NCBI GenBank assembly: GCA_051294375.1
Contig: JBJCIZ010001670.1
Location: 1-37,212, forward strand
Reading direction: 5' to 3'
Length of the DNA stretch: 37,212 nt
Source of the DNA: Paraspadella gotoi
Taxonomy: Eukaryota; Animalia; Chaetognatha
A program made the position numbers and the translations under genes. Below, piece by piece: positions 12,650-36,567 of this stretch; positions within the stretch are counted from its first letter, which is position 1; the number at the start of each line of letters is the position of its first letter. The notes below the pieces were generated by a model. It had not been told where the DNA came from, did no database searches, and saw nothing but the letters and a program-made list of their open reading frames with translations.

Positions 12650-14564
12650 TTCACTCCGAATTCGAGTTCACTCGTCTCTTCTCCGCACGCGTTATCGAGG
12701 TCGATCGTTTCATACGCAAATCACGTGCGTGTTAACCATCGTCATGCGATCAGCACGCAATTAAAGTTGCGTGCGCAAAGTCCAACGTTTGAAATGACCA
12801 AAAGAGGAGATAGAGGCGAATAACAGCGACATCCAAGACATATCACATACCTTCTTAGTTCTTTTGCTTAGTGTCCTTGTCCTGAGACATCTACGAGTAT
12901 TTCTGCAGTGATCTTCACATTTTGAGAGTAATCATCGATCCATATTACTTTTTTGCTATTGTAGTAAACTCTCTAATTAACTATAATGCTACTTTCTCAT
13001 GAACGCCCATTTTTCGAGTACTCGAGTCTCGAGTCTCGAAGATCCGACTGATCTTCCTCTTAAATCCCTTTTCAACGACCATACCAGCTACCATATAACC
13101 TAAGTTTGAGCAATAAGGTACTTCTTTGCCAACCCTTATACCCCATATAGGAAACTACTGTCTGTTCTCACCACCCTTGAATATATACCTTTTTAGCACC
13201 TATACATGAGGATATTAGCACTCTCTTATCATCTGTTCATTCCCGAATATGGATGTCCTGGAGATGGCAATATATGAATACAAAAACGCGCTCAAGACAC
13301 TAATCTATAAATCTTTTATATAGGCTTCTTCCCTCTTCTCGATGAATTTCACTAGAACGTCTAGATTTTTAAGTGATTCTCTCCATTAATTCCCGCGCTT
13401 TTAAGCACTGTAAAAATCACCCATTCTTTATTTTATCACAACTATATATAATTAATTGACGCAAACAAAAATAAATAATTAATTACCATTAATTTGATTG
13501 AAAATTATTGATTGATTGATTGATTTTTTAAAAACTTGTTTTTTGGATTCATACAATCAATTTCATTCATCTCATTCGATCATTCATTCATTTCATTCAT
13601 CTCATTTATTCATCTCATTATTTATTTATTTATTATTTATTTATTATTCTTCAATCAATATTATTGATATCATATTCTTTTCAACCCTAGTCTCTACCCT
13701 TTTTATATATACTATTCATATTAAAGTGACACATACCTCATTACCATGTGTTATATGTTCCATCTATCTTCGAGAACTCACGAGACAGAGATATATGTTA
13801 TTTACTACGATTCTCTTACTTTCGAGTAGTGTTTCCAAATATCGAGATAATATTTAGGCTCTGTATATCATATCTCTGATTTCTTATTTTTTATTTCAGA
13901 TCATAGAAGACCTTTCATTTTTTATCTGTTCTTTCAATACTTAAGGTACTTCATTATTACAGTTCTCACTCGGATCTGGGGCAATCTAGTTATACCATTA
14001 TCCGCTCCAGATATGGCAATATATTCTTTTTTAAAAAATTTGGCGGTAGAATACTGTCAGATTTTATCACCTGCTCCTACTGGATGGCTGGGACCTGCCC
14101 CTCCCAGCACCCCGCATTCCGCCCCCCATCGTTCTCCTCTTCTCTTCTCTCTCTCTCTTCCTCATCTCCCTCTCTCTCTCTCTCTCTGTTTAGTCTCTTT
14201 AGTCTCCTTCCGTTAATTTGTTTGCATTTTTTGTTTTATTACGATTTTCGTTAGCGATGAGGGGAAGGGAAAGGAGAATCTCTCTCTCTCATCTCTCTCT
14301 CTCTCTCTCTCTCCTCTCTCTCTCCTGCTTTCTCTCTCTTCTCTCTCTCTCTCTGCTCTCTCTTTCTCATGTCTCTCTTCTCGATCGGGCATTTATCGAA
14401 TACTTTGCGTTGTCGCCGTTCCATCTGATTTAGTTAACAAAATAATTATTAAAAAGTCTTTGGATCTTTAATATTCACAGTTTTTTTTTAACATTATAAC
14501 TTACACATTTTTAAATGATGAATGGAAAAAAACCTAAAAAAGTGGGCTACCGATAAAAATAAGC

Positions 14565-14616
14565 AGATAGACAGACAGATAGACAGACAGATTAGATAGA
14601 CAGACAGATAGATAGA
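14565..14616. repeat. (AGAY)n tetranucleotide microsatellite
   Basis: agatagacagacagatagacagacag...; inverted copy at ~25600-25660. Confidence 0.9.
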
Positions 14617-14679
14617 TCTTTGTTTAATAACTGCTTCCGTTGTCGATATTTGACCGCAAGTTTTTCCGGCGGTTTTGGT

Positions 14680-15398
14680 TAGGGTTCCGATAAACCGTTA
14701 ATTTTAGAAAAAATTTAGCTAACCCGTTAAAACTAATATTTTTAAGTTAAACGCGTTACGTTAAAATCGGTTAATTTTTATATAATTTTACTTTAAATTT
14801 AAAATATTATTATTTAAATCAAACTGAAAGTATTTAATGGTATTTTATCTTTTAACTCATGCTCCTGAATCTTTTTATCTTCTATTTCAGATAGATAGGT
14901 ACATATTTTAGTTAGTAAATTAAAAATATGATTTGAGCAAACTATTTGAATCTACCTATGATAATTTAGCTAATCAGATAATGCATCGTGAATAAATCTT
15001 ACTTACTAAACTTTTTCTTTTACCTCATAGCATAATAAAAAATATATAAAAGGACAAAAGAAAGAAAAACCACAATGTAATTCTAATTTTATTTGTTTTT
15101 GTCTCTTCTCTCTCTTTTCTCTTTTTCTTTCAGTTATATCTCTTCATTATTTTTCTTGATTGTGTTTCTTGAACGCTTGTTTTTTGTTTTTATTTTTTCA
15201 TAAGCCACTAAGGAGAATAAGAGGACAAAGAAAAAATTACTTTTCTTTTAAAAAATCAAAGATTTTATACCAAAAAATAAAAAAAATCAATATTTAAAAT
15301 TACAATTTAACACGTTTAAAATAAATATATTAACGGTTAGGTTAAACTTATTTTAACCGTTAATAACCCGTTAACTGTTAACGGTTATCGTAACCCTA
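14680..15398. mobile_element. MITE with ~21-bp TIRs, hAT-like
   Basis: Left end TAGGGTTCCGATAAACCGTTAA; right end TTAACGGTTATCGTAACCCTA (reverse complement TAGGGTTACGATAACCGTTAA). Multiple subterminal AACCG/CGGTT/CCGTTAA motifs at both ends. The TSD cannot be read because a gap starts at 15403. Confidence 0.7.
14930..14995 (-). mobile_element. Degenerate 3' end fragment of the Helentron/HINE family inside the MITE
   Basis: TTTGAGCAAACTATTTGAATCTACCTATGATAAT...AGCTAATCAGAT is reverse-complementary to 17695-17750. Confidence 0.55.
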
Positions 15399-15469
15399 GT
15401 TCNNNNNNNNNNNNNNNNNNNNNNNNNTAAGTTAAGGGTGAGAGACGAGGGTGAAAGAATGAATAAATG

Positions 15470-15479
15470 ATTGAATGAA

Positions 15480-15510
<31 letters not shown>

Positions 15511-15567
15511 ATGAATGAATGAATGAATGAATGAATGAATGAATGAATGAATGAATGAATGAATGAA
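15470..15567. repeat. Compound (AAAT)n(GAAT)n microsatellite
   Basis: Direct reading. Confidence 0.95.
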
Positions 15568-16708
15568 TTGATGAATCCAAAAAACAATTTAAAAAATCAA
15601 TCAATCAATCAATTAATTTTCAATCAATAAATTAATGGGTCAATTAATTAATGAAGAATGATTACAGTGTGAAAGCGCGGATTGAGAATCACTGAAAATC
15701 AGTGAAATTCACAAAGAGAAGACCATTTAGATTCCAGATTCCAAATTCCAGACACAATTCGAAAAGAAGACATGGCAAGGGTGGCAAAAAGGCATGGCGA
15801 GGGTGGCAAAGAAGCATGGCGAGGTAAGGACATGGTAAGGTCGTTGGAAAAAGGGATTAAGAGGAAGATCAGTCGGACTTCGAGACTCGAGACTCGAGAC
15901 TCGAAAAATGGGAGTAAGTCGAGATCAAGGAGATACGGTGTAGATGCGACAGCGGGGGGGGGAGGTAAGGTCTGGGGGGAAGTAGAGCTGCTGGGTGGAA
16001 AGAGTTGGGTGTAGTTAGGGAGCATCATGTTGGGAATTCATGATACGAAGGTTGAAGATTTTATGAAAAGCAAGAAAAATATGATTTGAAATTATAACAC
16101 CTGCTATATTTGAACTTAAAATGAGTTTATTGTTACCTGATTAATACAGTTGTCTGACAGATTAAAATTAAAGTTAGAATTATTGTCCGTTTTATAAAAT
16201 AGAGTGTTATGTCGCATATTCCCCCAAAAAATCGTCGAAAATTAAAATATGATTTAAAATTGTTTTTTTTTATTAAATCTACTCAGCGACAAATAATGAA
16301 AATTCATCAACGATCAAGATAATAAAATCAAATTCTATAATTTAGGTAATTTGAAAATTCAGTAAAAATGTTATCATTTTATGATAAACGTCAGATTTCT
16401 ACCTTTAAACCGATAAAAAAAAAAATCCCGAACAATTTTCGTCAACATCTGTAACCGTCTCCAGGGAAACCTCCTCCTCCTCTTCCTCTCCTCTTCTTCC
16501 TCCTCTCTTCTTCCTTCCTCCTCCTCCTCCTTCCTTTGGATCTTACCTTCCTGTTTGACCTTCCCTTAACACCTCCCGGCCCTCTTAATCGCGCGCGCAA
16601 CATTCCCCGTTCTTTTGTCTTCAATTTGCGTCTGTAATGGATCTGTTTGTCGTGCTTCTTGTCGCCGAAAATCACCGGGAGGAGGGGAGAGGAGAAGAGA
16701 GAGAGAGA

Positions 16709-16759
<51 letters not shown>

Positions 16760-17060
16760 GAGGCGGAGATGCTCTTTCAAAACGCCATTTGTTTTTATAA
16801 TGTTTGAAGAGGGTCGTTTTGTTACCGTCATTGTCCTTGTAGTTGTCATTGTCGTTGTCGTTGTCATTTTCATTGGTCGTTGTCATTGTCCTTGTCGTGT
16901 CATTGTCGCTCGTCATCTCGTTATAAGTTAAGAGAGAGAGAGAGAGAGAGACGAGAGAGAGAGAGAGAGAGAGAGCAGCAGAGAGAAGAGAGAGAGAGAG
17001 AGAGAGAGTAGAAATAAAGAAATTGGGAGGCAACAGAAATCAAAAGGTTGTCCGTTACAA

Positions 17061-17756
17061 AACAAGGTTTGCAAACAATGTCGGATCTGCCCACGGACAT
17101 TAGCGGTAATTAATCTATTAATAACAAACTATATAAACTAAATAATAATTAATTAATAAATTAATTAATTGATCCGAAATGTTTGGTTTTTTGTCTTTCG
17201 TCCACTGAGCACGACAAAAGCAACAACGACGACTGATGGCGACGACCTCAAAATATGCCGATACGATTGACTTGATTGATTTGATTAATCGATTTTAAAT
17301 AATTAATTAATTAATAAATAAATTTATTGATGAATAATTAATTAATAAATAATTAAATAAATAATTGGTTGAATAATATATTGATTGATTAATTGACCGA
17401 ATAATTAATATTTATTAGTATTCGATTAATTTACTGATTACATTATTTAATTTTTCAATTAATTAATTAATTGAAAAAAATAATGCAATTTGAAACAAAT
17501 GATGCAAGTTAAAAAATGATGCAAGTTAAAAAAATCGATTCAAGTTTGAAAAAATTATTTGTTTGTACCAAAGTAACAGTTAATTTAAATCCTTGCAAGC
17601 GATTTTACATGTATAGGCGCAGCCATTGGATTGATATGGTACCATTTGTATCTGATCATTAAGGATACAAATTGAAGAATTCTCGTCATTTATCATCTGA
17701 TTAGCTGATTACGCTATTATCGTAGGCAGATCCGACATTGTTTGCTCAAACTTGTT
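17061..17756. mobile_element. ~700-bp AT-rich element bounded by ~50-bp imperfect inverted repeats, each a Helentron-type 3' end
   Basis: Left end AACAAGGTTTGCAAACAATGTCGGATCTGCCCACG; right end CGTAGGCAGATCCGACATTGTTTGCTCAAACTTGTT. GCAGATCCGAC is the same subterminal repeat as in the HINE 5' hairpin, and GTTTGCTCAAAC is a short stem-loop. Confidence 0.65.
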
Positions 17757-20007
17757 TTATTTCAACAATTTTCCCATTTTAATCCTTTTTTTTTTTTTTT
17801 TTTCCTTCTTTCTTCTTTCTCTCACCTTCAAGGGGGCATGTCGGTTTCATGCTTCATTTTTTTTTTATGGCGGTTTTTATCTTCCTATTTTTCCTTGAAT
17901 AAATGGTATTCAACTATTCGATTTGGATTTTATCCCGCATTCCACCAGGACAATATTAAACATATCTCTCAGGATTTTAGGTTTTTTTAAATTGAAAAAT
18001 AAATAAAAGATTAAAACGGCCGTGAATCCTAATGAAAAAAGCTTTCTTTTTTTCTTCTTCTTTTCTCTCTCTACTCTTTCTTCTCTCTTCTCTCTCTCTC
18101 TCTCTCCTCTCTCTCTCAACTCTCTCTCTCTTCTACTTCTTCCTTCTCTCTTCCCAGGTGCACGCCCGTTAATGAGCGCCCGAATCCCAGGTGGCGCCGA
18201 TCTTTTGGATTTTTCCGCGATATTTCCGCTCGGCGATAAGGCAACACACATAAGGGACAACTAAAAGGGGTGCACACACATTTTAAAGCCTTCAACGGTC
18301 GATTAAGCACATTAAAGCTGTGAGCCTTTGACAAATCGATCGCGAGATCTCTCTCTCGCTCTCTTCTCTCTTCTGCTCCTCTCTCTCTCTTCTCCTTCTC
18401 TCTCTCTCTCCTCTCTCTTCTCTCCTCTCGTCTCTTCTCTCTATTTTATTTTGTCTAATGAACTGTTCCGGTCTCTTGCACAACCTTTTCGCGCCATTTT
18501 CGCTCTCCTTATCTTTTTCTATAATCATTTGCCTTCAAAATTAATTCCTTTTTTTTTAAAGCACGGAAATGAAAAATTTTCAAGACAAAAGTTTTCCTGA
18601 ATTATCACATAATTTGCAAATTGTATTATGACGTTATTGAGCGAAGAAGGGAAATATTTTTTGAATTGTTTTAACATTTAACATTTCGACATTGTGAGAT
18701 AATTTATCATGAATATTTTTTTTAAATTAATTTAAATTTATGAAACTTTTAAAATATCTCTTCCCCGGGTTGATATTTTTTTTAAACTCAGTTGTTGTCT
18801 TTGTAAATGTGGTTATGTGAACTTTTTACATCAAATCGAATTAAACTTGGCCTTAATAAAAAACCAATCAACAACTCGTGGTGTACCTTGCCCGACCGAA
18901 CAATTCGATGATCGTGTTCGTGTGCTTTCGTGTGTTGACGCTCACCCTTCCATGTGAAACTTACTTTTTTGGGGGCAGGTGACAACCTCCTCTCTCTCTC
19001 TCTCTCTCTCTCTTCTCTCCTCTCTCCCTCGCTTCTCTCCTCTCCTCTCCGTCTCTCTCTCCTCCTCTTCCTTCTCTCTCTCTCTCTCGCCGGGCCGTCA
19101 TAAATCTTTATGCAAATAATTAAGACCGCGATGTTTATGTTGGAACTTTTGATTTCCTCAGATTTTGCCGAAATCTTCGGCGAAAAATTGGAGTAACAGT
19201 GGGAGAGGTGGATAGAGGGAAGGGGAACGGGTGGGGGATTAAAGGGGATGTGGGAGGGAAATTTAGCAGGAGGAGGAAATTAAGAAGGGGAAGGGAGAAA
19301 TTCAGGAGGGGAAGGGAAAGAAGAATGGCAATGATTGTTATAAATATTAATTTGTAATTTAATATATTTTTAAGAAACAACGTAATACTGCTAGATAATT
19401 TTGTTTGTTTAATATCATTCTGTATTAGCTTAAACTTATGTTTAATTCTATTCAACGAACCTATATATTTGTTTTGAAAAAATATAATCATCTCTCTACA
19501 TTCCAGTTATTTTGGTGAAATGCGTTTGTAATCGCCTTGAGTGGATACTGAACCTGATATTGCATTTTGCATCATTTCCTTGCCGCTCCTCCCGTTTCTC
19601 TTCTCTTTCTTTTCTCGAGACGCAATGATGAGAGCGAGGAGAGGCCGGAGAGAGGAGAGAGAGAGAGAGAGAGAAGAGAGAGAGAATTTCTGTGTGAAAT
19701 TGGATGACGGGAAATAAGGGGAGCGACAAACAAAAGGCGCTCAAAACATCGAGAATCTGTCGACAAAAGAACAAATAAACTGGCGTCGTTTTTTTAAGGA
19801 GATGGTGTGGGGAGAAAAAAGGGGTGGAGGGGGGCGTCTATCCGATAGAGCGATTAATTAACCAGCATTATCTCTTATATTCATCATTTATTATCATAGA
19901 TACGAAGATGGAACACTGATAGAAGTTATTTCGCGGTCCGTGTGCGTTTGTGTGAAAAAAAAAATTAATTGATTATATTGGCGTCGCTGCCGGCTGAGAT
20001 GAAAAGT

Positions 20008-20093
<86 letters not shown>

Positions 20094-20430
20094 TCGGATT
20101 TCATCTCTATCTTTTCTCTCCTCAAAAAAACGGCTCGATTGTGCGACAAACGGGATTTGAGAGAGATCAGTCGTCTTTTCGCCCGGCAGAGGGCGGTTCG
20201 TTGGCTGCCGCTGCGGCGCGGCTGAAGCGGCGGCGGCGGCGATCGACGTAATTGAAGGCAAAAATGGGGCGTCAAATGGCGGCGGCGTCGGCGGCGGAAA
20301 CGGCGGATATGAGCAAATACTGCGGCGGCGACCGGGTAATCAACTATCGCTTGAAAAATGGATCACAATATGGGAGAGAAAAAGTCTGTGAAAGAATTGA
20401 AAGATGGAGAGATGGAAAATCTCTCTTACT

Positions 20431-20514
<84 letters not shown>

Positions 20515-20584
20515 TTTGCTCGTTCTTCTCAGTTAATCTCACTTTCTCATTTCTGATTTACTTTTGGGAGAAAGAGGAATAAAA

Positions 20585-20653
<69 letters not shown>

Positions 20654-20827
20654 TAGATAAATGTGAAAAAATTAATGAGGTTCCGACGGAGAAAGTCACG
20701 CAAGTTTTCCCTCTCCTTTTCGGGAACAAAGGTTAGATGTGAGTCGGTAACTCGACCAAATTAGGACAGAATGCATCCTCTTTATACTCTATTCATGTTT
20801 TTTTTTTTGCCAAACTTTTGTGTTTTA

Positions 20828-20930
20828 AAATTGGTACGTACAACCAATATAATAATTATTCATATGATAAACAAGCTATCTTGCCCTGCTTTGGACAGGC
20901 GGATGGTGGGTTTGGGCCTTTTGACTCTTG
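20828..20930 (-). repeat. Partial member of the dispersed ~250-bp repeat family
   Basis: AATTGGTAC...CAACCAATA...ATAAACAAGCTATCTTGCCC...TTTGGAC is inverted relative to 22070-22178; second copy at 33168-33272. Confidence 0.75.
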
Positions 20931-21227
20931 TGTCTCGAGCGGCGCTATTTGGATTCCAATTTTTGTTGTAGTTGTTGTAGCAGTTGTTATTGTTGTTTTC
21001 TTTTTGCCTTGATTCATCATTGCATCATCGTTACCCAATTGAAAAGTGGTTGAAAATGCTAAATTTTGTTCGTTTGTTTATCTTATGTTTTGACGTTGTC
21101 TGGATTATATTGTTCTATTCTTTGTCTTCGTCGCCGTCGTCGTCGTCGCACAAAAAATGGCGCCATAACAATGTGGAGGAGGGAAGGTTGCTCGCAAATT
21201 GCGGGGAGAATCCAAAAGAAAGACATT

Positions 21228-21292
<65 letters not shown>

Positions 21293-21929
21293 AGAGAAAG
21301 AGAGAGGTGCGCTTGATGGAGACAAAAGCCGGTTTAAAGGAAAGGTTTCCCCCAGATCGGCCATTACTCGGAGACAAAGGAGCAATGCCGGAGCTTTTGT
21401 GGGTATAGCATTGGGGATTGTGGCGGAGTGTGGGGATGAAGTGGAGAAGTATGGTGGTTTCGAGTGGGATGTGGTGTGGTATTTTAGAAGTTGGTCGAAG
21501 ATTGATCGCGGTGATGAGAGTGAGTTGAAAACCCGAGAGTGAGTTCGTCTTTTGATACTTATCATTGGTTGAGGTAAGGATGAGCGCCTTGGCTTTGAGA
21601 AGAAGGGGAAGGTAAGATTCAGGGCCACGTTTTGTCGTAAGCGCACCTTTTCAGCTTTAATTTAAAATTATATTTTTTCAGGTTTAAAGATTAGGTTTAA
21701 GGATTAAGGATTAGGGTTAAGCATTATTTTTGCTTTTTTGATTTGCTTAGGGTTTGTTGTTGATTTAGTTTGAGATTAAGGTAATTAGTGTATAAGTAAA
21801 ATAGTTTTATTTTTATATAACAATGGTTAAATTTTTTAATTTGTTTCGGTTTTATTAGCAAACCTTCGTTCAGCTCATTTATGACAAATTGAATTTTTAA
21901 GATTAATTATAATACTTAAGGGAGTGGTC

Positions 21930-22178
21930 TTTTCATACAATTGAAACATTCTTTGAAACATTATAATGTACCACTTCAATTGATAGGGAAGCCAGGTACT
22001 CTGGGAGTGAATAAACGAGACTGTGAGAAAATCTGATTGAAAGCTTGCAGGGACCTGCTATGTCATTATCTTGTAAGAGTGATGGAGGCCTTAAACCACA
22101 AAGCCAGTCCAAAGTCAGGGGCAAGATAGCTTGTTTATTAAATGAATGGATAATTTTTAGTATTGGTTGTACCAATTC
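21930..22178 (+). repeat. Dispersed ~250-bp repeat family member (longest copy)
   Basis: Homologous to 5460-5625 (-), 12095-12312 (+), 20828-20930 (-) and 34320-34563 (+). Confidence 0.8.
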
Positions 22179-22606
22179 ATTAATTTTTAAAAAATGTCAG
22201 TCGACAATTATATTGTTTTCTCCTTAATATTATAATAGAAAATAATTTAAGAGAATAGGGAAACGAAACAGCGGCGCTTTCGGAATATAATACTAGTTTT
22301 AGGAGGGTAAGGGCGGGTGAGGCGAAAGGAGAGTCGATCGTCCGAAGACAAATGGCGAAAAGGTGGTGTAAACGAAGACGTTAGAATCGAGTTCACTTCT
22401 TTTTCTCTTCTCTTATTTCTTTTCAAGAGGAGGACGAGAAGAGGAGGAAGGAGGAGAAGAAGAGAAAGGAAAAGAGATGAGACAGAGAGATATAATCCGA
22501 ACCGATGAGAGCTGAGTGTAAAAATTGAAGGGTTAGTCTCGGCGAAAGAAGCCAATTTATTGATTGAATTGTGGCGAGATGATGTGTGAATGTGAAAACG
22601 AGATGG

Positions 22607-22647
<41 letters not shown>

Positions 22648-23224
22648 AGAAGAAGAAGAGGGAGAGAGAGAGAGAGAGAGGCAGGCGCGGAGACGAATGT
22701 CTTCCCATCGCGAACTCGGACCTCCGCTAAAGAGGCGGAGAAGTTTGGAGATGCGAGAGCGAGCGCTTAAAAGAAGAGAACCGACGGGCGGTTTAAAGAG
22801 ACGAAGAAAGAGAGTCGAGACGGTTGAGCGCTTGAAGAAACTTGTTGGAACGTTAATTGAGAAAATTTGGTGTGGTACATTATGGCTTTCCCGAATGATT
22901 TTATATACGGAAAGCATAAATTTTAAAAATTGAAGAAAAAAAAAATTAGTGAAACATAAATGAAAAGCACGTATAATCAAAAATAGTACTCATAAACGGA
23001 AAAAAAAAAAACGAATTTAAATACCGGGACATCTACCTAAGTGTCACCAAAAAGCAAAGACAAAGGTTATTATCAATCACGGCTATTCTTGAAAATTGGA
23101 GTGTGCGGGAAGAAATTTTTTTGGGAGTTACCTTTGATAGTAAATAAAATTGGAATACCCACATAGATAGCATTTTCTAAGCGAATGATACTATGGTGGA
23201 CTAAAACCCACCAACCGTTCATCA

Positions 23225-23294
23225 GCGCCCATTGGTGCCGGAGGCAAGTCATTCGCCTCCCAACCAAAGGTCCGGGTTCTAGCCCGGTGGTCGT
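23225..23294 (+). promoter_or_regulatory. tRNA-like module (putative internal Pol III promoter) in TRIM-1 5' LTR; second copy at ~23638-23702
   Basis: Acceptor-like GCG(C/G)CCA / TGGTCGT, A-box-like TGGTGCCGGAGG, loop CTCCCAA, and T-arm CCGGG-TTCTAG-CCCGG with B-box-like GGTTCTAGCCC. The anticodon stem pairs poorly, so it is not a functional tRNA. Confidence 0.7.
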
Positions 23295-23296
23295 CT

Positions 23297-23372
23297 GGCA
23301 GCTAAGAGGGACGGGGCCGCTTAACCGCCTGTAACCATGGTTTACAGCCTGATCCGAAGCTCAGGGACTGCT
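23297..23372 (+). ncRNA. Putative type-P5 twister ribozyme in TRIM-1 5' LTR
   Basis: GGCAGCT(P5)-AAGA-GG(P2')-GA-CGG(T1')-GGCCGCT(minimal P1)-TAA-CC(P2)-GC(T2)-CTGTAA..TTACAG(P3)-CCTGA(P4)-TCCGAAGC(L4)-TCAGG(P4')-GACTGCT(P5'). Predicted U|A cleavage at 23322/23323. Confidence 0.75.
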
Positions 23373-23423
23373 ATATTGAACGGTTCTGTCATTAACACAT
23401 ATCAATAATTACTGGTCTCTTCA

Positions 23424-23436
23424 TGGTGAGCCCGAC
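23424..23436 (+). promoter_or_regulatory. Primer-binding site of TRIM-1 (closest to tRNA-Trp type)
   Basis: TGGTGAGCCCGAC directly after the LTR; one difference from the canonical tRNA-Trp PBS TGGTGACCCCGAC. Confidence 0.75.
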
Positions 23437-23588
23437 TTCCGACACAACAGCAACAACAACACTTTCAGGCGCATGCTCAACCTGCGATGCACTTTTCGCC
23501 ACAACACATCAGGCGACATGCCTCACTGGTGACGCACTTTCCACCAACAACAACATTCACTGAAGAGACGCAACAGACATCTTCCTAC

Positions 23589-23600
23589 GGGAGGGGGGGA
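23589..23600 (+). promoter_or_regulatory. Polypurine tract of TRIM-1
   Basis: GGGAGGGGGGGA immediately before the TG of the 3' LTR. Confidence 0.85.
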
Positions 23601-23704
23601 TGTATGGTGGACTAAAACCCCACCAACCGTTCATTCAGCGGCCATTGGTGCCGGAGGCAAGTCATTTCGCCTCCCAACAAGGTCGGGGTTAGCCGGTGTC
23701 GTCT

Positions 23705-23779
23705 GGCAGTTAAGAGGGACGGGGCGCTTAACCCGCCTGTAACATGTGTTACAGCCTGATCCGAAACTCAGGGACTGCT
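23705..23779 (+). ncRNA. Putative type-P5 twister ribozyme in TRIM-1 3' LTR
   Basis: Same layout; P5 GGCAGTT/GACTGCT, P3 CTGTAACA-TG-TGTTACAG, P4 CCTGA/TCAGG. The loop reads TCCGAAAC (T2 mismatch). Predicted cleavage at 23729/23730. Confidence 0.65.
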
Positions 23780-23878
23780 TATATTGAACGTTCTGTATTA
23801 ACACATATCAATAATTACTGTCTCTTCAATCCAAGAGCGGATGTGGAGACGATGCCGCGAGCAGTTTACCGTCCATTG

Positions 23879-23956
23879 CACACAAGGTCCGACTTCGGAT
23901 CGGGCTGTAGTCGACACTACAAGGTGGGTTAGCGCCCCGTCCCGCTTTACTTGTTG
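23879..23956 (-). ncRNA. Putative type-P5 twister ribozyme in TRIM-2 3' LTR
   Basis: Minus strand ...CAAGTAAAGCGG-GA-CGG-GGCGC-TAA-CCC-AC-CTTGTAGTGTCGACTACAG-CCCGA-TCCGAAGT-CGG-ACCTTGTGTG, with a few single-base indels versus the 5' LTR copy. Confidence 0.6.
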
Positions 23957-24072
23957 AATCAGCAGGGCGCGAACCCGAGTCCTTTGGGTTGGAGGAGCTC
24001 GTGCTACCTCCGCGCCATAGGTGCTGCTGATCTCGGACCGAGTAGTGGGGTATGAAATACACCACTACACAA

Positions 24073-24081
24073 TCCCCCCCT
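24073..24081 (-). promoter_or_regulatory. Polypurine tract of TRIM-2
   Basis: TCCCCCCCT on + strand next to the LTR end. Confidence 0.8.
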
Positions 24082-24241
24082 AGGCATCACACACCCGCGC
24101 AAGTGTGATGGCTATGATGCACGCGTTGTGCCGAGCACTCTAGGAGGGGCTGCCTTTTCTGCTCCCGTCTTCACACACGATGGTCGAGGGCAGAGGTGTG
24201 TAACATGCCCGGCAGAGGTGATAACGTGCCAGCGTGTTCGT

Positions 24242-24254
24242 GTGGGGCTCACCA
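24242..24254 (-). promoter_or_regulatory. Primer-binding site of TRIM-2
   Basis: TGGTGAGCCCCAC one base after the LTR CA; first 10 nt identical to the TRIM-1 PBS. Confidence 0.8.
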
Positions 24255-24293
24255 ATGTGGAAGACGAATGCGCGAGCAGTTTACCGTCCATTG

Positions 24294-24377
24294 CACACAA
24301 AGGTCCCGAAACTTCGGATCGGGCTGTAGTCCGACACTACAGGTGGTTAGACGCCCCGTCCCGCTTTTACTTGTGTG
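24294..24377 (-). ncRNA. Putative type-P5 twister ribozyme in TRIM-2 5' LTR
   Basis: Minus strand CACACAAGT(P5)-AAAAGC-GG-GA-CGG-GGCGTC-TAA-CC-AC(T2)-CTGTAG..CTACAG(P3)-CCCGA(P4)-TCCGAAGT(T)-TCGGG(P4')-ACCTTTGTGTG(P5'). Predicted cleavage at 24349/24348. Confidence 0.75.
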
Positions 24378-24454
24378 AATCAGCAGGGCGCGAACCCGAG
24401 TCCTTTGGGTTGGGAGGAGCTCGTGCTACCTCCGCGCCATAGGTGCTGCTGATT
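24378..24454 (-). promoter_or_regulatory. tRNA-like module (putative Pol III promoter) in TRIM-2 5' LTR; second copy at ~23957-24031
   Basis: Minus strand A-box-like TGGCGCGGAGG(TAGC), CTCCCAA and B-box-like GGGTTCGCGCCC, enclosed by the 9-bp stem AATCAGCAG/CTGCTGATT. Confidence 0.7.
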
Positions 24455-25069
24455 CTCGGACAGTAGTGGGGTATGAAAACTACCACTACACGGATTTATC
24501 TAAACACCGTTATATATTTAAATATTTAAGTAGTAATATTATGTTAGAACTCTATTCGGTATTTCTTTCTCTCTCATTTGGAATAAGCAAGAGTTTGTTT
24601 GTACTTAAATCTAATTCCCTATGGAATAAATTAGAAACTGTCGATTGAGTTTAAAGAATATTTTCGAATGTGCCCTGATCAATGTCAAATGTTTGAGTGT
24701 TGGTCATTGCGGTTAGAACCGTTACGTGTAGATTCATTAAAAGGGCACACATGCAGATGCGAGGGCTAATAGAGAAAACGCCCCTATTACCTAAATATAT
24801 TAATGACATGAATGATTTTAAATTAGGCAGAAGGGCTGTTTGTCCTTCGAATTTTTAGTGAAGTGCCCAATAATTATGCGATTTAACTTTACACGTTACT
24901 TTATGTGATATTTTTTGTTTTCTGTATAGGATACCTTTCGTATTCGAGAAAAGTGTTGAAAAGATCAANNNNNNNNNNNNNNNNNNNNNNNNNNNNNNNN
25001 NNNNNNNNNNNNNNNNNNNNNNNNNNNNNNNNNNNNNNNNNNNNNNNNNNNNNNNNNNNNNNNNNNNNA

Positions 25070-25865
25070 CATTAAAATTAGAAGTACATTGCATGGTTTT
25101 TCTTTCTTTGTCCCTTTCTATCATATATTCTTATTACTGCTATGAGGTAAAAGGAAAAATAGTGTAATAGTAAGTAAAGATTTATCACCGATGCATTATC
25201 TGATTAGTCTAATTCGATCATAGGTACCATTCAAAATAGTTTGCTCAAATCCAATTTTTTAATTTATAACTAAAATACTCTGTACCTATCTATCTGAAAA
25301 TAGAGATAAAAACAGAATTCAGCGCAGCATGCAAAAGAATAATAAAGAAGTAAAAATCACCATTAAATTACTTCAGTCTTGATTTACAATACATAATATA
25401 TTTAAATTTCAAAGTAAAATTATACAAATTAACCTTGGGAAGATTTAACGGGTTAACGTTAAAAATATTTTAGTTTTACACGGAGTATAAGCTAACATTT
25501 TTCTACAACGATTAACGTCTATCGGAACCCTCAACAAAACCGCCCGGAAAAACTTGCGCGTCAAAATATCGACCAAACGCGAAGCAGTTTTAAACAAAGA
25601 TCTATCTATCTGTCTGTCTATCTATCTGTCTGGTCTACTCTGTCTGCTTCATATCTGCTTATCTTTAATCGGTAGCCCACTTTTGCAGTCTTTTCCATTA
25701 TCATTTAAAAATGTGTAAGTTAATAAATGTTGTGTAAAAAAAAACTGTGAAATATTAAAGATTCCAAAGACTTTTAATAATTATTTTGCTTAACTAAATC
25801 CAGATGAACGGCAGACAAACGCAAAAGTACTCGCATAAATGCCCGATCGATCGAGAGAGACATTG

Positions 25866-25930
<65 letters not shown>

Positions 25931-26100
25931 CGAGCGACGAGGAGAGAGAGAGAGAGAGAGAGAGAGATTCTCCTTTCCCTTCCCCTCATCGCTAACACGA
26001 AAATCGTAAATAAAACAAAAAAATGCAAACAAATAACGGAAAGGAGACGTAAAGAGAACTAACAGAGAGGAGAGCAGAGAGAGGAGACGAAAGACTGAGA
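25070..26100 (+). repeat. Inverted copy of 14150-15090, including one end of the hAT-like MITE and the AGAY tract
   Basis: E.g. AAACAAAGATCTATCTATCTGTCTGTCT (25592) and CCTTTCCCTTCCCCTCATCGCTAAC (25972) are reverse complements of 14600-14625 and 14250-14275. Confidence 0.85.
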
Positions 26101-28635
26101 CGAAGAGAGAGAGAGAGAAGAGAGAGAAGAGAGAGAAAGAATCAGAGGCGCTAAAGTATCTAAGAAAATAGAGAGGGTGACGTGTAAATTCCTCGGCGCG
26201 TCTCCTAGAGGTTCGTGAAAGGTGAGGGTAAAGTAAGCTAGGTCGAATAGAGTACCACACGTAAGAGTTTATAGGTTGAGAGACAGAGGGTGAAAGAATG
26301 TAATAAATGATCTTCATAGAATAAATAAACTAATAAAATAATAAATAACGAATGAATGAATTGACCAACCCGAGAGTGAGATGAAGCTCCCATAGACTAT
26401 GCAATAGTACTTAATGACATGAAGATGACATGTCATTATTGTAATGACTCATGCGCACCTTTGATGAATCTCAAAAATTAACAATTTAAAAACATCAATT
26501 TCAATCAACTCTAATTTTTAATTTTCAATCAATTAAATAATGGCTCACTTATTAAGTAAGCGCAATGATTACAGTGTTGAATATTTTACAAAAAATTAAT
26601 TTAATGAGGGGGGGTCTGTCCTGGGCCGGGTGATTGAAATATCACCTGAAGAAATACAGCTGTTGAATTTTCACAAAAGTAGAAAGACCAAGTGTATAGG
26701 ATTCTAGATTCCAAATTCCAGACCACAGATACCTGAAACATTTGGCGTATATGAAGGTTGGGAAAAAGGCATGGCGAAGTAAACAGGGTTGCGATAAGGA
26801 CTCAGCTCATGGCGCATGTATACTCGAAAATGGTAGAATAGGTACTATTTGGTAACAGTCGTTCGAGAAAAGTTGTTTATAGTAGTGAATGTATCACGTT
26901 CAGACTTCACTCAGATCTACTCGAGAGCTTCGAACTCGTGAAAAATGGATGAGTTAGATGTCCTCATTTGAGCATCAATTGTAAAGAAAGTACTGGTTCG
27001 TTTAGCAGCGACAGCGGGGGCGAAAATAAGTCTCGGGGCCGTGCACAAAAGCGAGGTAAGGTCTGGGAGGGAAGTAGAGCTGCTGAGTGGAAAGAGTTGG
27101 TTGTAGTTAGGAGCATCATGTCTAGGGAATCATTTGATACGAAGGCTTGAAGATTCTTATGAAAAGCAAGAAAATATTATTTTGAAATTAAAACACCCTG
27201 CTATATTTGAACTTTAAAATTGAGTTTATTGTTCACCTGATTAATAGGTACCCAGGAGTTTTCGTGCGCCTGACAGATAAAATTAAAGTTTAGAATTATT
27301 GTTCGTTTTATAAATATAGAAAGTGTTATGTCGGCATATTCCCCAAAACAAATCGTCTGAAAAATTAAATGAAATTGCATTGTTTAAAATAATGTGTATT
27401 TTATTTCATAAAAATCTACTCGAGCCGACAAATTAATGAAAATATCCAGTTATCACTCCGATTCTAGGAATGAGTAGAAAATCCTAAAATTCTTATTTTA
27501 ATTCTTTTTTTTCATTTTTTTATTTTTAGAAAATTCTTAAATCTGATCAGGAAGTGTCTGATAAAAATTGTTTTCGTAATCATTTTATTTTCTTCATGAA
27601 TAAAACGTCAAGGAATTTCTATACCGTTATAATATATACCGATTGACTTAAAAAAACGAAAAACCTCAAAGAATAGAACAAAGTTAAGCGCCGACTCGGA
27701 TCTCAGTCCGACACAATTTTTTCGGTTTCAAACATTGTAACCGTCTCCAGGGAAAGGGCCTCGCGATAAATTCCTACTCTCTTCGAACCTCCCATGATAC
27801 CTGCTCCTCCCGGCTGTCCTGCCGTCCTCTGTCTTCCTCCTCCTCTCCTCGCATTAACCCTTTAGATACTGTAACCTTCCTTATCCCGGTAAATACCTTC
27901 CTTCCCTTACACCTCCGGCCCTCTTAATGCGCGCGCCAAACACTTCCCCCGGCTTTTCGTCGTCTCAATTTTGCGTCTGTAATGGATCTAGTTGTCGTTG
28001 CTCTTTGTCAGCCCGAACAAATACCGGGAAGAGAGGGATTGGGGGTGGGAGAGGAGAGCTGACCGAGCAACGACCCGAGGAATGGAGAAAGAAGTTAGTA
28101 TGAAGCCCGAGAGAGATGATGGGAATAATAGAAACCAGATAAGGGGAAATGCAGCTCCGTGAGAAGAGAGCGCAGATTAGCAGAAAAAGATGTGAGAGAG
28201 ATGAGATGAGCAGCTCCTTTCAAACGCCAATTTCGTTTTTCTTATTAAATCTCTGTGAAGAGGGTGTTTTTGTCTACCGTCATTGGCCTTGTAGTTGTCG
28301 ATTTGTCGCTTGGTCTGTTGTCATTTTCATTTTGTCTTCTGTTCATTTGTCCTTGTCGTTGTCAAATATTGTCAGACTGTCATCCTACGTATTAATCAAG
28401 TTTAAGAGAGAGAAATCCAACTGGACTTTTCTCAATAGAAGAGCAGGACAGCAGAGTATGACGAGGAGAGCGAGATCACGCACGAGTTAAAAGAAAAGGA
28501 AGAGAGGAGAGAGAGAGACGTAGAGAAATAAAGTAATACTTTGGTATGACCAAAACCCGCGTAGGCAATAAAAGAAATCAAACGCTTAAAGGTGTTGTAA
28601 TATTAAAAGACTTCCGTAGCTCTACTGCGTTAAAA

Positions 28636-29437
28636 AAACAAGAGGCGTTCTGTGCAAAAGCAAATAATTGTCCGCATCTGCCACGAAACGTCCACGAACA
28701 TTCACGCCGATTGGTAATGTGATTTATTGAAGTTAATGTTGTAATTAACAAAATACCGATTTTGTAAAAAATAATAATATAAACACCCTAGCAATCCCTT
28801 AAAAATATTATTTTAATTAATAAATTTAATTATAAATTGGGCATTCTCGACACATGTTTGGTTTTTTATGGTCTTTTTTCGTCACTTGACCACGACAAAA
28901 GCAACGACGACGATGATGGCGACGACCTCCAAAATGCCGATAACGATTGACTTGATTGATTGATTAATCGATTAAATAATTAATTAATTAATTAATAAAT
29001 TTATTGATTGAATAATTAATTAATAAATAATTAAATAAATTAATTGGTTGAATAATTAATTGATTGATTAATTGACCGAATAATTAATTATTTATTAGGT
29101 AATTGATTATTTAACTGATTAATTATTTAATTTTTCAATTAATTAATTAATTGAAAAAATAATGCAATTTGAAAAAATGATGCAAGTTAAAAAATGATGC
29201 AAGTTAAAAAAAATGATTCAAGTTGAAAAAATTATTTGTTTGTACCAAAGTAACAGTTCAATTTAATCCCTTGCAAGCGATTTACATGTATAGGCGCAGC
29301 CATTGGATTGATATGGTACCATTTGTTCTGATCAATTAGGATCACAAATTGAAAGAATTCTCGTCATTTATCATCTGATTAGCTGATTACCGCTTAATTA
29401 TCGTAGGCAGATCCGACATTGTTTGCTCAAACTTGTT
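28636..29437. mobile_element. Duplicate of the 17061-17756 inverted-repeat element
   Basis: Right end TCGTAGGCAGATCCGACATTGTTTGCTCAAACTTGTT is intact; left end is noisy. Confidence 0.6.
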
Positions 29438-30035
29438 TTATTTCATCCCAATTTTCCCATTTTAATCCTTTTTTTTTCCCTTCCTTCTCTCTCTCACCTT
29501 CAAAGGGCAGCTGTCGGTTCATGCTTCATTTTTTTTGCGGTTTTTCTCTTCCATATTTTTCCCTTTGAATAAATAAATGGTATTCAATATTCGATTTGAT
29601 CCGCCTCAAAATTCCATCAGGAAATATTAAAAAATATCTCTCAGGATTTTTAGGTTTTTTTAAATTGAAAAATAAATAAAAGATTAAAACGGAATCCTAA
29701 TGAAAAAAAGCTCTTTTTCTTTTTTTCTCTCTCTCTCTTTCTCTCTCTCNNNNNNNNNNNNNNNNNNNNNNNNNNNNNNNNNNNNNNNNNNNNNNNNNNN
29801 NNNNNNNNNNNNNNNNNNNNNNNNNNNNNNNNNNNNNNNNNNNNNNNNNNNNNNNNNNNNNNNNNNNNNNNNNNNNNNNNNNNNNNNNNNNNNNNNNNNN
29901 NNNNNNNNNNNNNNNNNNNNNNNNNNNNNNNNNNNNNNNNNNNNNNNNNNNNNNNNNNNNNNNNNNNNNNNNNNNNNNNNNNNNNNNNNNNNNNNNNNNN
30001 NNNNNNNNNNNNNNNNNNNNNNNNNNNNNNNNNNN

Positions 30036-30069
<34 letters not shown>

Positions 30070-31316
30070 ATGTTTCCCTAATCTTTGTCTAATGAACTGT
30101 TCCGGTCTCTTCACACCTTTTCGCGCCAAATTCGCTCTCCTTATCTTTTCTTATCAAATTTGCCTTCAAATTAATTCCCTTTTTTTTTAAAGCAGGAAAT
30201 GAAAAATTTTCAAGACAAAAAGTCTGAATTATCACATAATTTGCAAATTGTATTATGAGTTATTGAGCGAAGAAGGGAAATATTTTTGAATTTGTTTTAA
30301 CATTTAACATTTACGACATGTGAGATAATTTATCATGAAATATTTTTTTTAAATTTAATTTAAATTTAATGAAACCTTTCAAAATATCCTCCTCTCGGGT
30401 TGATATTTTTTTTAAACTCAGTTGTTGTCTTTGTAAATTGGTTATGTGAACTTTTTACCATAAATACGAATTAAAACTTGGACTTAATAAAAAAACAATC
30501 AAAACAACCGTGGTGTACCTTGCCCGACCCGAACATTCGTGATCGTGTTCGTGTGCTTTCGTGTGTTGACCTCNNNNNNNNNNNNNNNNNNNNNNNNNNN
30601 NNNNNNNNNNNNNNNNNNNNNNNNNNNNNNNNNNNNNNNNNNNNNNNNNNNNNNNNNNNNNNNNNNNNNNNNNNNNNNNNNNNNNNNNNNNNNNNNNNNN
30701 NNNNNNNNNNNNNNNNNNNNNNNNNNNNNNNNNNNNNNNNNNNNNNNNNNNNNNNNNNNNNNNNNNNNNNNNNNNNNNNNNNNNNNNNNNNNNNNNNNNN
30801 NNNNNNNNNNNNNNNNNNNNNNNNNNNNNNNNNNNNNNNNNNNGCGAAAAATTGGAGTAAAGTGGGGAAGAGGTGATAGGAGGGGAAGGGAAGGGTGGGG
30901 ATAAAGGGGATGTGGAAGGGACAATTGTCAGCAGGAGAGGAAGGGAATAAGAAGGGAAGGGGAAGAAATTTCAGGAGGGGAAGGGAAAGAAGAAATGGCA
31001 TGATTGTATAAATATAATTTGTAATTTATAATATAATTTAAGAAACAACGTAAATACTGCTAGATAATTTTGTTCTGTTTAATACTGCATCTGTATTTAG
31101 CTTAACTATGTTTAATTATTCAAACGCTATTATATTTTGTTTTTGAAAAAAAAATTATCATCAGTTCCTAGCATTCAGCTTATTTTGGTGACAATCGGCG
31201 TTGTAATCAGCCTTTGATGTCGACTCAATGAAACTGATATTGCAATTCTTTGCATCATTTCCTTGCCGCTCCTCCCCGTTCTTCTCCTCTTCCTCCTTTC
31301 CCTCCTCGAAAACGCA

Positions 31317-31442
<126 letters not shown>

Positions 31443-34400
31443 TGTGTGAAATTGGATGACGGGGAAATAAAGGGGAGCGACAAACAAAAGGCGCTCAAAA
31501 CATCGAGAATCTGTCGGACAAAAGAACAAATAAACTGGCGGTCGTTTTTTAAGGAGATGGTGGTGGGAGAAAAAAGGGGTGGAGGGGGGCGTCTATCCGA
31601 TAGAGCGATTAATTAACCAGCATTATCTCTTATATTCATCATTTATTATCATAGATACGAAGATGGAACACTGATAGAANNNNNNNNNNNNNNNNNNNNN
31701 NNNNNNNNNNNNNNNNNNNNNNNNNNNNNNNNNNNNNNNNNNNNNNNNNNNNNNNNNNNNNNNNNNNNNNNNNNNNNNNNNNNNNNNNNNNNNNNNNNNN
31801 NNNNNNNNNNNNNNNNNNNNNNNNNNNNNNNNNNNNNNNNNNNNNNNNNNNNNNNNNNNNNNNNNNNNNNNNNNNNNNNNNNNNNNNNNNNNNNNNNNNN
31901 NNNNNNNNNNNNNNNNNNNNNNNNNNNNNNNNNNNNNNNNNNNNNNNNNNNNNNNNNNNNNNNNGAGAGAGATCGGATTTCATCTCTCTCTTTTCTCTCT
32001 CAAAAAAACGGCTCGATTGTGCGACAACGGGATTTGAGAGAGATCAGTCGCTCTTTTCGCCGGCAGAGGGCGGTTCGTTGGCTGCCGCTGCGGCGGCGGC
32101 TGAAGCGGCGGCGGCGGCGATCGACGTAATTGAAGGCAAAAAATGGGCGTCAAATGGCGGCGGCGTCGGCGGCGGAAACGGCGGATATGAGCCAAATACT
32201 GCGGNNNNNNNNNNNNNNNNNNNNNNNNNNNNNNNNNNNNNNNNNNNNNNNNNNNNNNNNNNNNNNNNNNNNNNNNNNNNNNNNNNNNNNNNNNNNNNNN
32301 NNNNNNNNNNNNNNNNNNNNNNNNNNNNNNNNNNNNNNNNNNNNNNNNNNNNNNNNNNNNNNNNNNNNNNNNNNNNNNNNNNNNNNNNNNNNNNNNNNNN
32401 NNNNNNNNNNNNNNNNNNNNNNNNNNNNNNNNNNNNNNNNNNNNNNNNNNNNNNNNNNNNNNNNNNNNNNNNNNNNNNNNNNNNNNNNNNNNNNNNNNNN
32501 NNNNNNNNNNNNNNNNNNNNNNNNNNNNNNNNNNNNNNNNNNNNNNNNNNNNNNNNNNNNNNNNNNNNNNNNNNNNNNNNNNNNNNNNNNNNNNNNNNNN
32601 NNNNNNNNNNNNNNNNNNNNNNNNNNNNNNNNNNNNNNNNNNNNNNNNNNNNNNNNNNNNNNNNNNNNNNNNNNNNNNNNNNNNNNNNNNNNNNNNNNNN
32701 NNNNNNNNNNNNNNNNNNNNNNNNNNNNNNNNNNNNNNNNNNNNNNNNNNNNNNNNNNNNNNNNNNNNNNNNNNNNNNNNNNNNNNNNNNNNNNNNNNNN
32801 NNNNNNNNNNNNNNNNNNNNNNNNNNNNNNNNNNNNNNNNNNNNNNNNNNNNNNNNNNNNNNNNNNNNNNNNNNNNNNNNNNNNNNNNNNNNNNNNNNNN
32901 NNNNNNNNNNNNNNNNNNNNNNNNNNNNNNNNNNNNNNNNNNNNNNNNNNNNNNNNNNNNNNNNNNNNNNNNNNNNNNNNNNNNNNNNNNNNNNNNNNNN
33001 NNNNNNNNNNNNNNNNNNNNNNNNNNNNNNNNNNNNNNNNNNNNNNNNNNNNNCTTTTCGGGAACAAAGGTTAGATGTGAGTCGGTAACTCGACCAAATT
33101 AGGACAGAATGCATCCTCTTTATACTCTATTCATGTTTTTTTTTTTTGCCAAACTTTTGGTGTTTTAAAATTGGTACGTACAACCAATATAATAATTATT
33201 CATATTGATAAACAAGCTATCTTGCCCCTGACTTTGGACAGGCGATGGTGGGTTTGGGCCTTTTGACTCTTGTGTCTCGAGCGGCGCTATTTGGATTCCA
33301 ATTTTTGTTGTTGTAGTTGTTGTAGCAGTTGTTATTGTTGTTTTCTTTTTGCCTTGATTCATCATTGCATCATCGTTACCCAATTGAAAAGTGGTTGAAA
33401 ATGCTAAATTTTGTTCGTTTGTTTATCTTATGTTTTGACGTTGTCTGGATTATATTGTTCTATTCTTTGTCTTCGTCGCCGTCGTCGTCGTCGCACAAAA
33501 AATGGCGCCATAACAATGTGGAGGAAGGGGAAAGTTGCTCGCAAAATTGCGGGGGAGAAATCCAAAAGGAAAGGGAGACATTAATGAAGAGAGAGAGGGA
33601 GAGATAGAGAGAGAGAGAGCAAGAGAGAGAGAGAGAGAGAGAGGAGAGGATAAGATGAGAGAGAGAGGAGCAGAGAGAGAGAGAGAGGTGTCGCTTGATG
33701 GAGACAAAAGCCGGTTTAAAGGAAAGGTTTCCCCCAGAATCGGCCCATTACTCGGAGACAAAGGAGCAATGCCGGAGCTTTTTCGTGGGTATAGCATTGG
33801 GGAGTTGTGGCGGAGTGTGGGGATGAAGTGGAGAAGTATGGTGGTTTCGAGTGGGATTGTGGTGGTGGTATTTTAGAAGTTGGTCGAAGATTGATCCGCG
33901 GTGATGAGAGTGAGTTGAAAACCCGAGAGTGAGTTCGTCTTTGATACTTATCATTGGTTGAGGTAAGGATGAGCGCCTTGGCTTTGAGAAGAAGGGGAAG
34001 GTAAGATTCAGGGCCACGTTTGTCGTAAGCGCACCTTTTCAGCTTTAATTTAAAATTATATTTTTTTTAGGTTTAAAGATTAGGTTTAAGGATTAAGGAT
34101 TAGGGTTAAGCATTATTTTTGCTTTTTTGATTTGCTTAGGGTTTGGTTGTTCATTTAGTTTGAGATTAAGGTAATTAGTGTATAAAGTAAAATAGTTTTA
34201 TTTTTATATAACAATGGTTAAATTTTTTAATTTGTTTCGGTTTTATTAGCAAACCTTCGTCAGCTCATTTATGACAAATTGAATTTTTAAGATTAATTAT
34301 AATACTTAAGGGAGTGGTCTTTTCATACAATTGAAACATTCTTTGAAACATTATACCACTTCATTGATAGGGAAGCCAGGTACTCTGGGAGTGAATAAAC

Positions 34401-36534: not shown

Positions 36535-36567
36535 ATACAAAGATGCCGGGGACCCGGGTGTAGGCGA

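Follow-up and report, generated by a model that had tools for sequence, protein, structure and literature searches.

Two small, non-coding retrotransposons lie next to each other in the chaetognath Paraspadella gotoi, and an earlier note on their sequence had placed a circularly permuted twister ribozyme within the long terminal repeats (LTRs) of both. Is the fold a real twister, and what would a self-cleaving RNA do in such an element? The whole stretch of DNA that we analysed, here called the window, is 37,212 nucleotides long (NCBI GenBank assembly GCA_051294375.1, contig JBJCIZ010001670.1, positions 1 to 37,212 of the forward strand). It contains one terminal-repeat retrotransposon in miniature (TRIM) of each of two families, A and B, with four LTRs between them. 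Twisters have few assigned roles. Judging from the sequence, we consider the fold very probably a genuine twister of the type-P5 permutation, active now or in the recent family, even though its P1 helix and its Rfam score place it outside formal membership of the Rfam family RF02684.

The fold in the four long terminal repeats

The core GGGACGG-N-TAACC-N-TCCGAARY occurs exactly four times in the window, once per LTR, compared with 0.00 times in 100 shuffles, which bears out the claim of a core common to all four. The folds are located as follows (U/AA below denotes the loop cut at the slash):

23297-23372, plus strand: fold of the A 5' LTR; core 23308-23360, general-base G 23310, predicted cut 23322/23323
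23705-23779, plus strand: fold of the A 3' LTR; core 23716-23767, general-base G 23718, predicted cut 23729/23730
24294-24377, minus strand: fold of the B 5' LTR; core 24311-24362, general-base G 24360, predicted cut 24349/24348
23879-23956, minus strand: fold of the B 3' LTR; core 23892-23943, general-base G 23941, predicted cut 23931/23930

The U/AA loop and the general-base GA stand in the P5-permuted order in all four LTRs. The U/A sites lie at the two positions proposed earlier, 23322/23323 and 24349/24348, and also at 23729/23730 and 23931/23930. The T1 pseudoknot (3 bp) is CGG/CCG in both families, the T2 pseudoknot (2 bp) is GC/GC in A and AC/GU in B, and P4 closes the 8-nt loop L4 with 5 bp in A and, by majority letters, 5 bp in B. 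Pairing in P3, P4, P5 and T2 is as the earlier note had described it, except that in three of the four LTRs the letters as written are defective in T2 or P4: the A 3' LTR has a T2 mismatch at 23766, the B 5' LTR has an extra P4 base, and the B 3' LTR is without two P4 bases. We therefore report that, under a strict structural descriptor (P2 of at least 2 pairs, T1, T2, P4 of at least 4, U/AA and GA), the A 5' copy alone among the four passes as written. Two details did not stand: the family B P5 quoted earlier was stitched together from two copies, and the supposed P1 of about 2-3 bp is actually a 6-nt linker between T1 and U/AA, a hairpin of 2-3 bp being rejected because its loop would be too short.

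Most of these defects disappear at the level of the families. We compared public contigs from four runs, which held 7-19% of the sampled words and show the families rather than this insertion (no contig spans it). The G that restores T2 at 23766 accounted for 98.6-99.8% of depth in all four runs; the mismatch is private to the A 3' copy and a minority letter. In family B, P4 is completed by the base behind 23891, which is present in 94-100% of depth; in the 3' LTR, the base behind 23932, which gives the 6-nt linker, accounted for all of the depth in the three runs where it was listed. Less settled is the third C of the B P2 strand (97%, 14%, 47% and 76% in runs X1, X3, X4 and X9). For family A, 4599, 2268, 825 and 321 contigs were compared in the four runs, in a count that omits contigs below 80% identity and 14 indel rows. 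Across 23705-23781, substitutions reached 4% at the P3-loop positions 23744-23745 and at the T2-restoring 23766 and nowhere else. U/AA and GA were invariant at this level, and frequent variants were found outside the core (23294, 23535 and 23782). Such uniformity of the core sequence suggests constraint.

A third family, C, contains the same fold in an unrelated repeat:

34452-34514, plus strand: family C fold; T1 UGG/CCA, T2 AC/GU, hexamer AGGCCU, no P3; descriptor match at 34466
22067-22128, plus strand: family C fold upstream of A, at a distance of about 1 kb; the two-copy block makes it one locus with 34452
5521-5583, minus strand: damaged family C fold; T1 mismatch, hexamer not self-complementary

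In family C the first P2 pair is U-A, P4 has 4 bp, and the sequences of P4 and P5 differ from those of A and B. Across seven copies from the three families, 7 of 18 pairs have two-sided changes; P4 accounts for three of them, and T1, T2 and P2 for one apiece. Overall, 80% of cells pair, compared with 21-52% when partners are slid; kinship among the rows inflates the shuffle test here, and in places the alignment is shifted by one position. With the strict descriptor we obtained two matches, from two families, in the window and 17 in 1745 shuffles (0.01 per shuffled window); in the GC-richer element region it gave 4 in 83,351 shuffles, a chance rate of 0.037 per Mb.

Family C is a repeat, dispersed and about 240 bp long, whose copies have the 3' end in common and vary in 5' extent; they lie at 21938-22177, 34325-34560 and 12103-12300 (plus strand) and at 5485-5623, 20838-20919 and 33178-33261 (minus strand). 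Its anatomy is not that of an LTR element. It may be a Penelope/Naiad-type terminal repeat; a motif search of the Naiad/Chlamys consensus file (PMC8557442) showed no twister, and no tie to family C, in the 16 passages returned.

For comparison with established twisters, we used a calibration set of type-P5 twisters from viral contigs, in which 11 of 14 loci gave a total of 13 RF02684 matches that exceeded the cut-off. These Rfam-verified phage twisters have the same order of parts as the window fold. Two further phage twisters (L182:78-135 and L238:78-135) carry a swapped first T1 pair, C-G, giving T1 CGG/CCG as in A and B; their RF02684 scores are 52.9 and 50.1 bits, against a cut-off of 37.6. 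The swap is therefore natural, and phage twisters have GGG/CCC as well. A P2 of 3 bp is present in L020 and L026. Two phage contigs contain twisters in pairs, one about 240 bp apart (L019:98-154 and L019:337-398) and the other about 2.9 kb apart (L020/L021). P1 in the 13 phage examples that pass the descriptor is a hairpin of 8-12 bp, and this long P1 is the likely reason why models of known type-P5 twisters miss the window copies. Published work points the same way: P1 is dispensable in twisters (PMC5408937), they withstand defects in P1, P2 and P4 and are sensitive at the pseudoknots and catalytic residues (PMC11662667), and T1 accepts compensatory pairs (PMC9901934). In the window fold, the sensitive pseudoknots are intact. 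In the reverse direction, a model built from the seven window copies ranked L238 and L182 first and second (E 0.0004 and 0.03) among 100 motif-selected loci, of 121 fetched, and phage twisters were the top four of another 36 loci. Family C, with its compensatory T1 and P2 changes, is in our view of the sequences stronger evidence than this reverse-model test.

Several observations weigh against the twister interpretation. The Rfam scan, which the earlier note had proposed as a check, gave no twister match, either at the gathering score in the window or at E<=10 in the element region, and a model from six phage type-P5 twisters with filters off gave three weak matches, none of them a core. The reverse model found the phage twisters weakly (E 0.0004-0.8) and mostly through the P4-L4 hairpin, with two decoys at E 0.034. 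P2 has two clean pairs, its third position being mismatched or bulged in families A, B and C; folding of single strands gives weak z-scores (0.49 to -2.70); and the kinship of A and B leaves about two independent lineages in the pairing comparison. The uniformity of the family A core could equally come from a young family, and the omissions from that count detract from it further. Finally, a 6-nt-linker pattern in prokaryote genomes yielded one of 109 preselected loci that passes the descriptor. This locus (L324, minus strand near 301-350, from a Flavobacteriaceae metagenome-assembled genome) has a hexamer that is not self-complementary and is probably a chance match. Against these points stand the positions of the catalytic G and A, both pseudoknots, the compensatory changes across three families, the phage T1 and the published tolerance of P1 and P2, which together support the type-P5 assignment.

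Other searches were negative within their scope. An element-specific pattern had 0 matches in metagenome contigs, and a P4-L4 pattern (10 of 64 parts of the metagenome contigs) found 120 loci, 0 of which pass the descriptor. In viral contigs, the core pattern found 17 loci, none with P4 and with 0 Rfam matches, and a short-P1 canonical pattern found five, 0 of which pass. The Rfam scans of the window and region contained no ribozyme family of any kind and no hammerhead; matches to small nucleolar RNAs or bacterial small RNAs, at E 0.9-9.6, were rejected.

The linker in the P1 slot has a property of its own. From T1 to U/AA the distance is exactly six bases in all three families, and the hexamer is self-complementary in each (GGCGCU in A, GGCGUC in B, and AGGCCU, a perfect palindrome, in C):

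23723-23728, plus strand: hexamer GGCGCU in the P1 slot of the A 3' LTR
24350-24355, minus strand: hexamer GGCGUC in the P1 slot of the B 5' LTR

Self-complementarity is found in 5.3% of hexamers overall and in 12 of the 109 motif-only decoys. In a monomer the six bases close no useful hairpin, a P1 of 1 bp costing 3.6-3.9 kcal/mol; a swapped dimer was 11.7 (copy A3) or 13.1 (copy C34) kcal/mol below two monomers of the same fold, with pseudoknots uncounted, and for C34 the swapped form is the free dimer minimum. Penelope hammerheads, whose very short helix III is palindromic, cleave as dimers (PMC6765202, PMC7761336). By analogy, an exact, self-complementary 6-nt linker suggests a domain-swapped dimer, in which, according to the modelling, two copies would pair over six bases and each lend the other its P1. 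Whether such pairing is needed for efficient cutting is finely balanced, and we lean slightly towards its not being so. Three points count against the dimer: given the base make-up, 40% of permutations are self-complementary for A and B and 13% for C; the free dimer of A3 pairs through P3 and not the hexamer; and P1-less twisters cleave as monomers (PMC5408937), so that a dimer is not required in principle. At 23735-23755, P3 in family A contigs is often lengthened into a palindrome that is almost perfect and has a tiny loop, and copies might pair with each other there as well.

Anatomy and setting of the elements

The account of two TRIMs with four LTRs held up, and the parts of each element could be located:

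23188-23191: left target duplication of A, ATAC; the right copy, 23829-23832, reads ATCC
23192-23828, plus strand: TRIM family A, whole element, 637 bp, without open reading frame (ORF)
23192-23423, plus strand: A 5' LTR, 232 bp
23223-23289, plus strand: tRNA-like segment of the A 5' LTR; A-box-like 23233-23244, B-box-like 23275-23285
23424-23436, plus strand: A primer binding site (PBS)
23589-23600, plus strand: A polypurine tract (PPT)
23603-23828, plus strand: A 3' LTR, 226 bp
23838-23841 and 24491-24494: target duplication of B, perfect, CGGA/CGGA
23842-24490, minus strand: TRIM family B, whole element, 649 bp
23842-24069, minus strand: B 3' LTR, 228 bp
24073-24081, minus strand: B PPT
24240-24254, minus strand: B PBS, tRNA-Trp-like
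24256-24490, minus strand: B 5' LTR, 235 bp
24383-24447, minus strand: tRNA-like segment of the B 5' LTR; A-box-like 24429-24439, B-box-like 24386-24396

A is related to B (72% over 118 bp), and the two lie tail to tail, with 5 bp between their target duplications. The right duplication of A reads ATAC in the second assembly copy of the locus (36535). At 23829-23841, two elements of opposite orientation adjoin, and each has a 4-bp duplication to itself; this may mark an insertion hot spot or targeting by a helper. The 5' and 3' LTRs differ by 6 substitutions and 16 gap columns in A and by 0 substitutions and 19 gap columns in B; few substitutions with many gap columns fit young insertions read with indel errors.

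By eye, 12 of the 13 bases of the A PBS are complementary to the 3' end of honeybee tRNA-Trp (Kojima Fig. S2). Both PBSs begin TGGTGAGCCC, the first 10 bases of the B PBS being those of A, and the mismatch common to the two suggests a slightly different host tRNA. Both PPTs are G-rich. We judged the box motifs after section 3.5 of PMC10886601: an A-box-like segment is present in all four LTRs and the B box GGTTC in three, that of the A 3' LTR having a deletion in this assembly and being intact in public contigs. ARAGORN called no tRNA in the tRNA-like segments, and a functional tRNA gene was accordingly rejected as their identity; we infer from the sequence that they are promoters for RNA polymerase III (Pol III). 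The twister-like fold begins about 7 bases past the tRNA-like segment in each LTR. Their sequence features (4-bp duplications, a tRNA-Trp-like PBS, a PPT and tRNA-like A and B boxes) make A and B non-coding LTR retrotransposons of the Helenus type.

The window around them is AT-rich eukaryotic DNA with gaps and many (AG)n tracts, and its assembly looks like the noisy long-read type. It contains 0 tRNA genes, and there are 0 credible ORFs near the two TRIMs. A block of about 11 kb is present in two copies (about 14100-24760 and about 25070-37212, 77-96% identity, many indels), the first part inverted, and is likely an uncollapsed haplotype or a misassembly. At 35701-36862 the TRIM locus appears again, probably because one locus was assembled two times; this copy was left out of independent counts. 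Elsewhere, a short degenerate tandem repeat lies at 8260-8566, with relatives near 2525-3157 and 7676-9260.

Proposed processing of the transcript

What would a twister do in each LTR? The parts of each element follow in the order promoter-like segment, fold, PBS, interior, PPT, promoter-like segment, fold. The explanation we favour, with some reserve, is that A and B are twister-bearing LTR retrozymes, driven by Pol III and cut once per LTR. In this scheme, Pol III would start near 23223, and both folds would cut, one per LTR, probably while paired as a dimer. This would release a unit of 407 nt (A) or 418 nt (B) without terminal redundancy, carrying one whole permuted LTR, which would be ligated to a circle. 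A Gypsy reverse transcriptase (RT) primed at the PBS could then rebuild both LTRs from the circle, as the single permuted LTR of the unit would allow; such rebuilding has been proposed for plant retrozymes (PMC4918200, PMC7761336). That both copies cut and the unit circularises seems to us somewhat better than an even bet. A count against the circle is its shape: pairing in the predicted circles is 56% and 65% (z -1.1 and -2.6 versus base shuffles), so that they are not strongly rod-like and fall below the more than 70% reported for metazoan retrozymes.

The main rival is a linear route with a 3' cut only, in which a monomeric mini-twister serves as an end-maker. Each copy would cut alone and the hexamer would be a plain linker; the 3' copy would replace the T-run terminator of Helenus, the 5' copy would often escape, and a linear RNA with an R region of roughly 100 nt would enter the normal LTR cycle. 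The dispensability of P1 fits this route, as does the position of the fold: most published animal Helenus LTRs, inspected by eye, have a T-run just past the tRNA-like part, and A and B place the fold in that slot, with one T4 run on the sense strand of each element. Yet an end-maker gives no role to an exact, self-complementary 6-nt linker in three families, and two identical ribozymes should both cut, which leaves this route unlikely in our judgement.

Self-complementary, GC-rich loops initiate RNA dimerisation in retroviruses. The hexamer could likewise be a kissing-loop signal, kept within a twister-derived structure for dimerisation or packaging into the particle of a Gypsy helper, with cleavage slow or lost. 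The weak P2 would agree with this. A packaging signal, though, needs neither the general-base G nor U/AA nor two pseudoknots kept with compensatory changes, and family C has the same fold in a non-LTR anatomy; we consider this quite improbable. Least probable of all, and by a small measure more so, is that the fold is an inactive passenger or a chance resemblance, having come once with a captured fragment, for example from a Penelope-like repeat such as family C. The missing covariance-model match favours this reading; against it stand a chance rate of 0.037 per Mb and LTR ends and stems that diverged between A and B with core and pairing kept, a pattern not expected of a passenger.

Returning to the retrozyme scheme, its most far-reaching form is tentative, and we give it rather less than an even chance: A and B would be Pol III LTR retrozymes built on a natural, dimeric, P1-less type-P5 twister whose two LTR copies exchange domains through the hexamer, such that only two-LTR transcripts are cut into a unit ready to circularise. 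The ribozyme slot would be interchangeable, with a twister here and an apparent hammerhead in Synergus Helenus-2, the dimeric twister would be shared with a non-LTR repeat, and the class would be one missed by covariance models.

Relation to known systems

As tRNA-promoter TRIMs, A and B resemble Helenus/TRIMp3 (Kojima 2024, PMC10886601). Shared features are a non-coding TRIM below 1 kb, A and B boxes in the LTR, a PBS and a PPT, a 4-bp duplication as in animal families (5-bp in fungal and plant ones) and a Trp-type PBS as in Helenus-2_SyJa. In the available text of that paper, "ribozyme" appears only in a reference and none is mentioned for Helenus. We saw no twister core by eye in its DataS1 (parts 1 and 5-10 of 11), and an exact-motif search of the whole DataS1 found none in an LTR, line breaks being able to hide matches. 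Two families from Synergus wasps, Helenus-2_SyJa and Helenus-2_SyUm, have by eye an apparent type III hammerhead in the same slot, together with a Trp PBS: CUGAUGA and GAAAC cores, three helices, and complementary loops I and II. If the hammerhead is right, these families would be insect LTR retrozymes, and two unrelated ribozyme classes in one slot would be the usual sign of cleavage as function.

Within the open literature we consulted, partly in excerpt (including PMC10085705 and PMC6154101), neither a twister in an LTR or a TRIM nor a naturally occurring dimeric one turned up; such cases could be contained in Repbase notes, in subscription papers or in the lists that supplement Roth et al. 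2014 and PMC11662667. Twisters have been reported in non-LTR elements (PMC8501958), and a July 2026 preprint (10.64898/2026.07.22.740005) describes LTR retrozymes as mainly of plants and with type III hammerheads, the word "twister" being absent from the text available. On this basis, the combination of a twister with a tRNA-promoter TRIM appears to be new, and its component kinds (Helenus TRIM, LTR retrozyme, type-P5 twister) are known.

Plant LTR retrozymes (Cervera et al. 2016, PMC4918200) share with A and B a ribozyme per LTR (here predicted), a PBS, a PPT, a 4-bp duplication, a non-coding interior, an inferred Gypsy helper and a circular intermediate. They have type III hammerheads, a tRNA-Met PBS and units of 600-1000 nt, and are described without a promoter, whereas in A and B the fold is that of a twister, the promoter is internal and tRNA-like, the PBS is Trp-like and the units measure 407 and 418 nt. 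The dimeric minimal hammerheads of Penelope (PMC6765202, PMC7761336) likewise combine a helix that is too short with a palindromic loop and two copies per transcript, but they belong to another ribozyme and another element class, and dimer cleavage, shown there, is inferred here. The twister T-variants that Schistosoma Perere-3 carries (Liu et al. 2021, PMC8501958) also have a weak P1, sit in a retrotransposon and begin T2-P3 similarly, and the window core order matches the published Schistosoma twister element table; they differ in being of the type-P1 permutation, and the autonomous non-LTR element that contains them has one copy, at its 5' end.

The closest relative of the fold itself is the type-P5 twister (RF02684, clan CL00120). 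Both have the order P2-GA-T1-(P1)-U/AA-P2-T2-P4-L4-P4, an L4 of the form U-NNN-AA-RY, both pseudoknots and, in L182 and L238, a CGG/CCG T1. The window fold differs in having a 6-nt linker for the P1 hairpin, a P2 of two clean pairs, a P3 in A and B, a closed P5 and no Rfam model match. Because Rfam misses the motif, such elements may be common and unannotated. If true, our interpretation would join Helenus, retrozymes and twisters and explain how RNA ends are set in a Pol III LTR element, and the palindrome in the P1 slot would be the twister counterpart of the dimeric hammerheads, a check that only two-LTR transcripts get processed.

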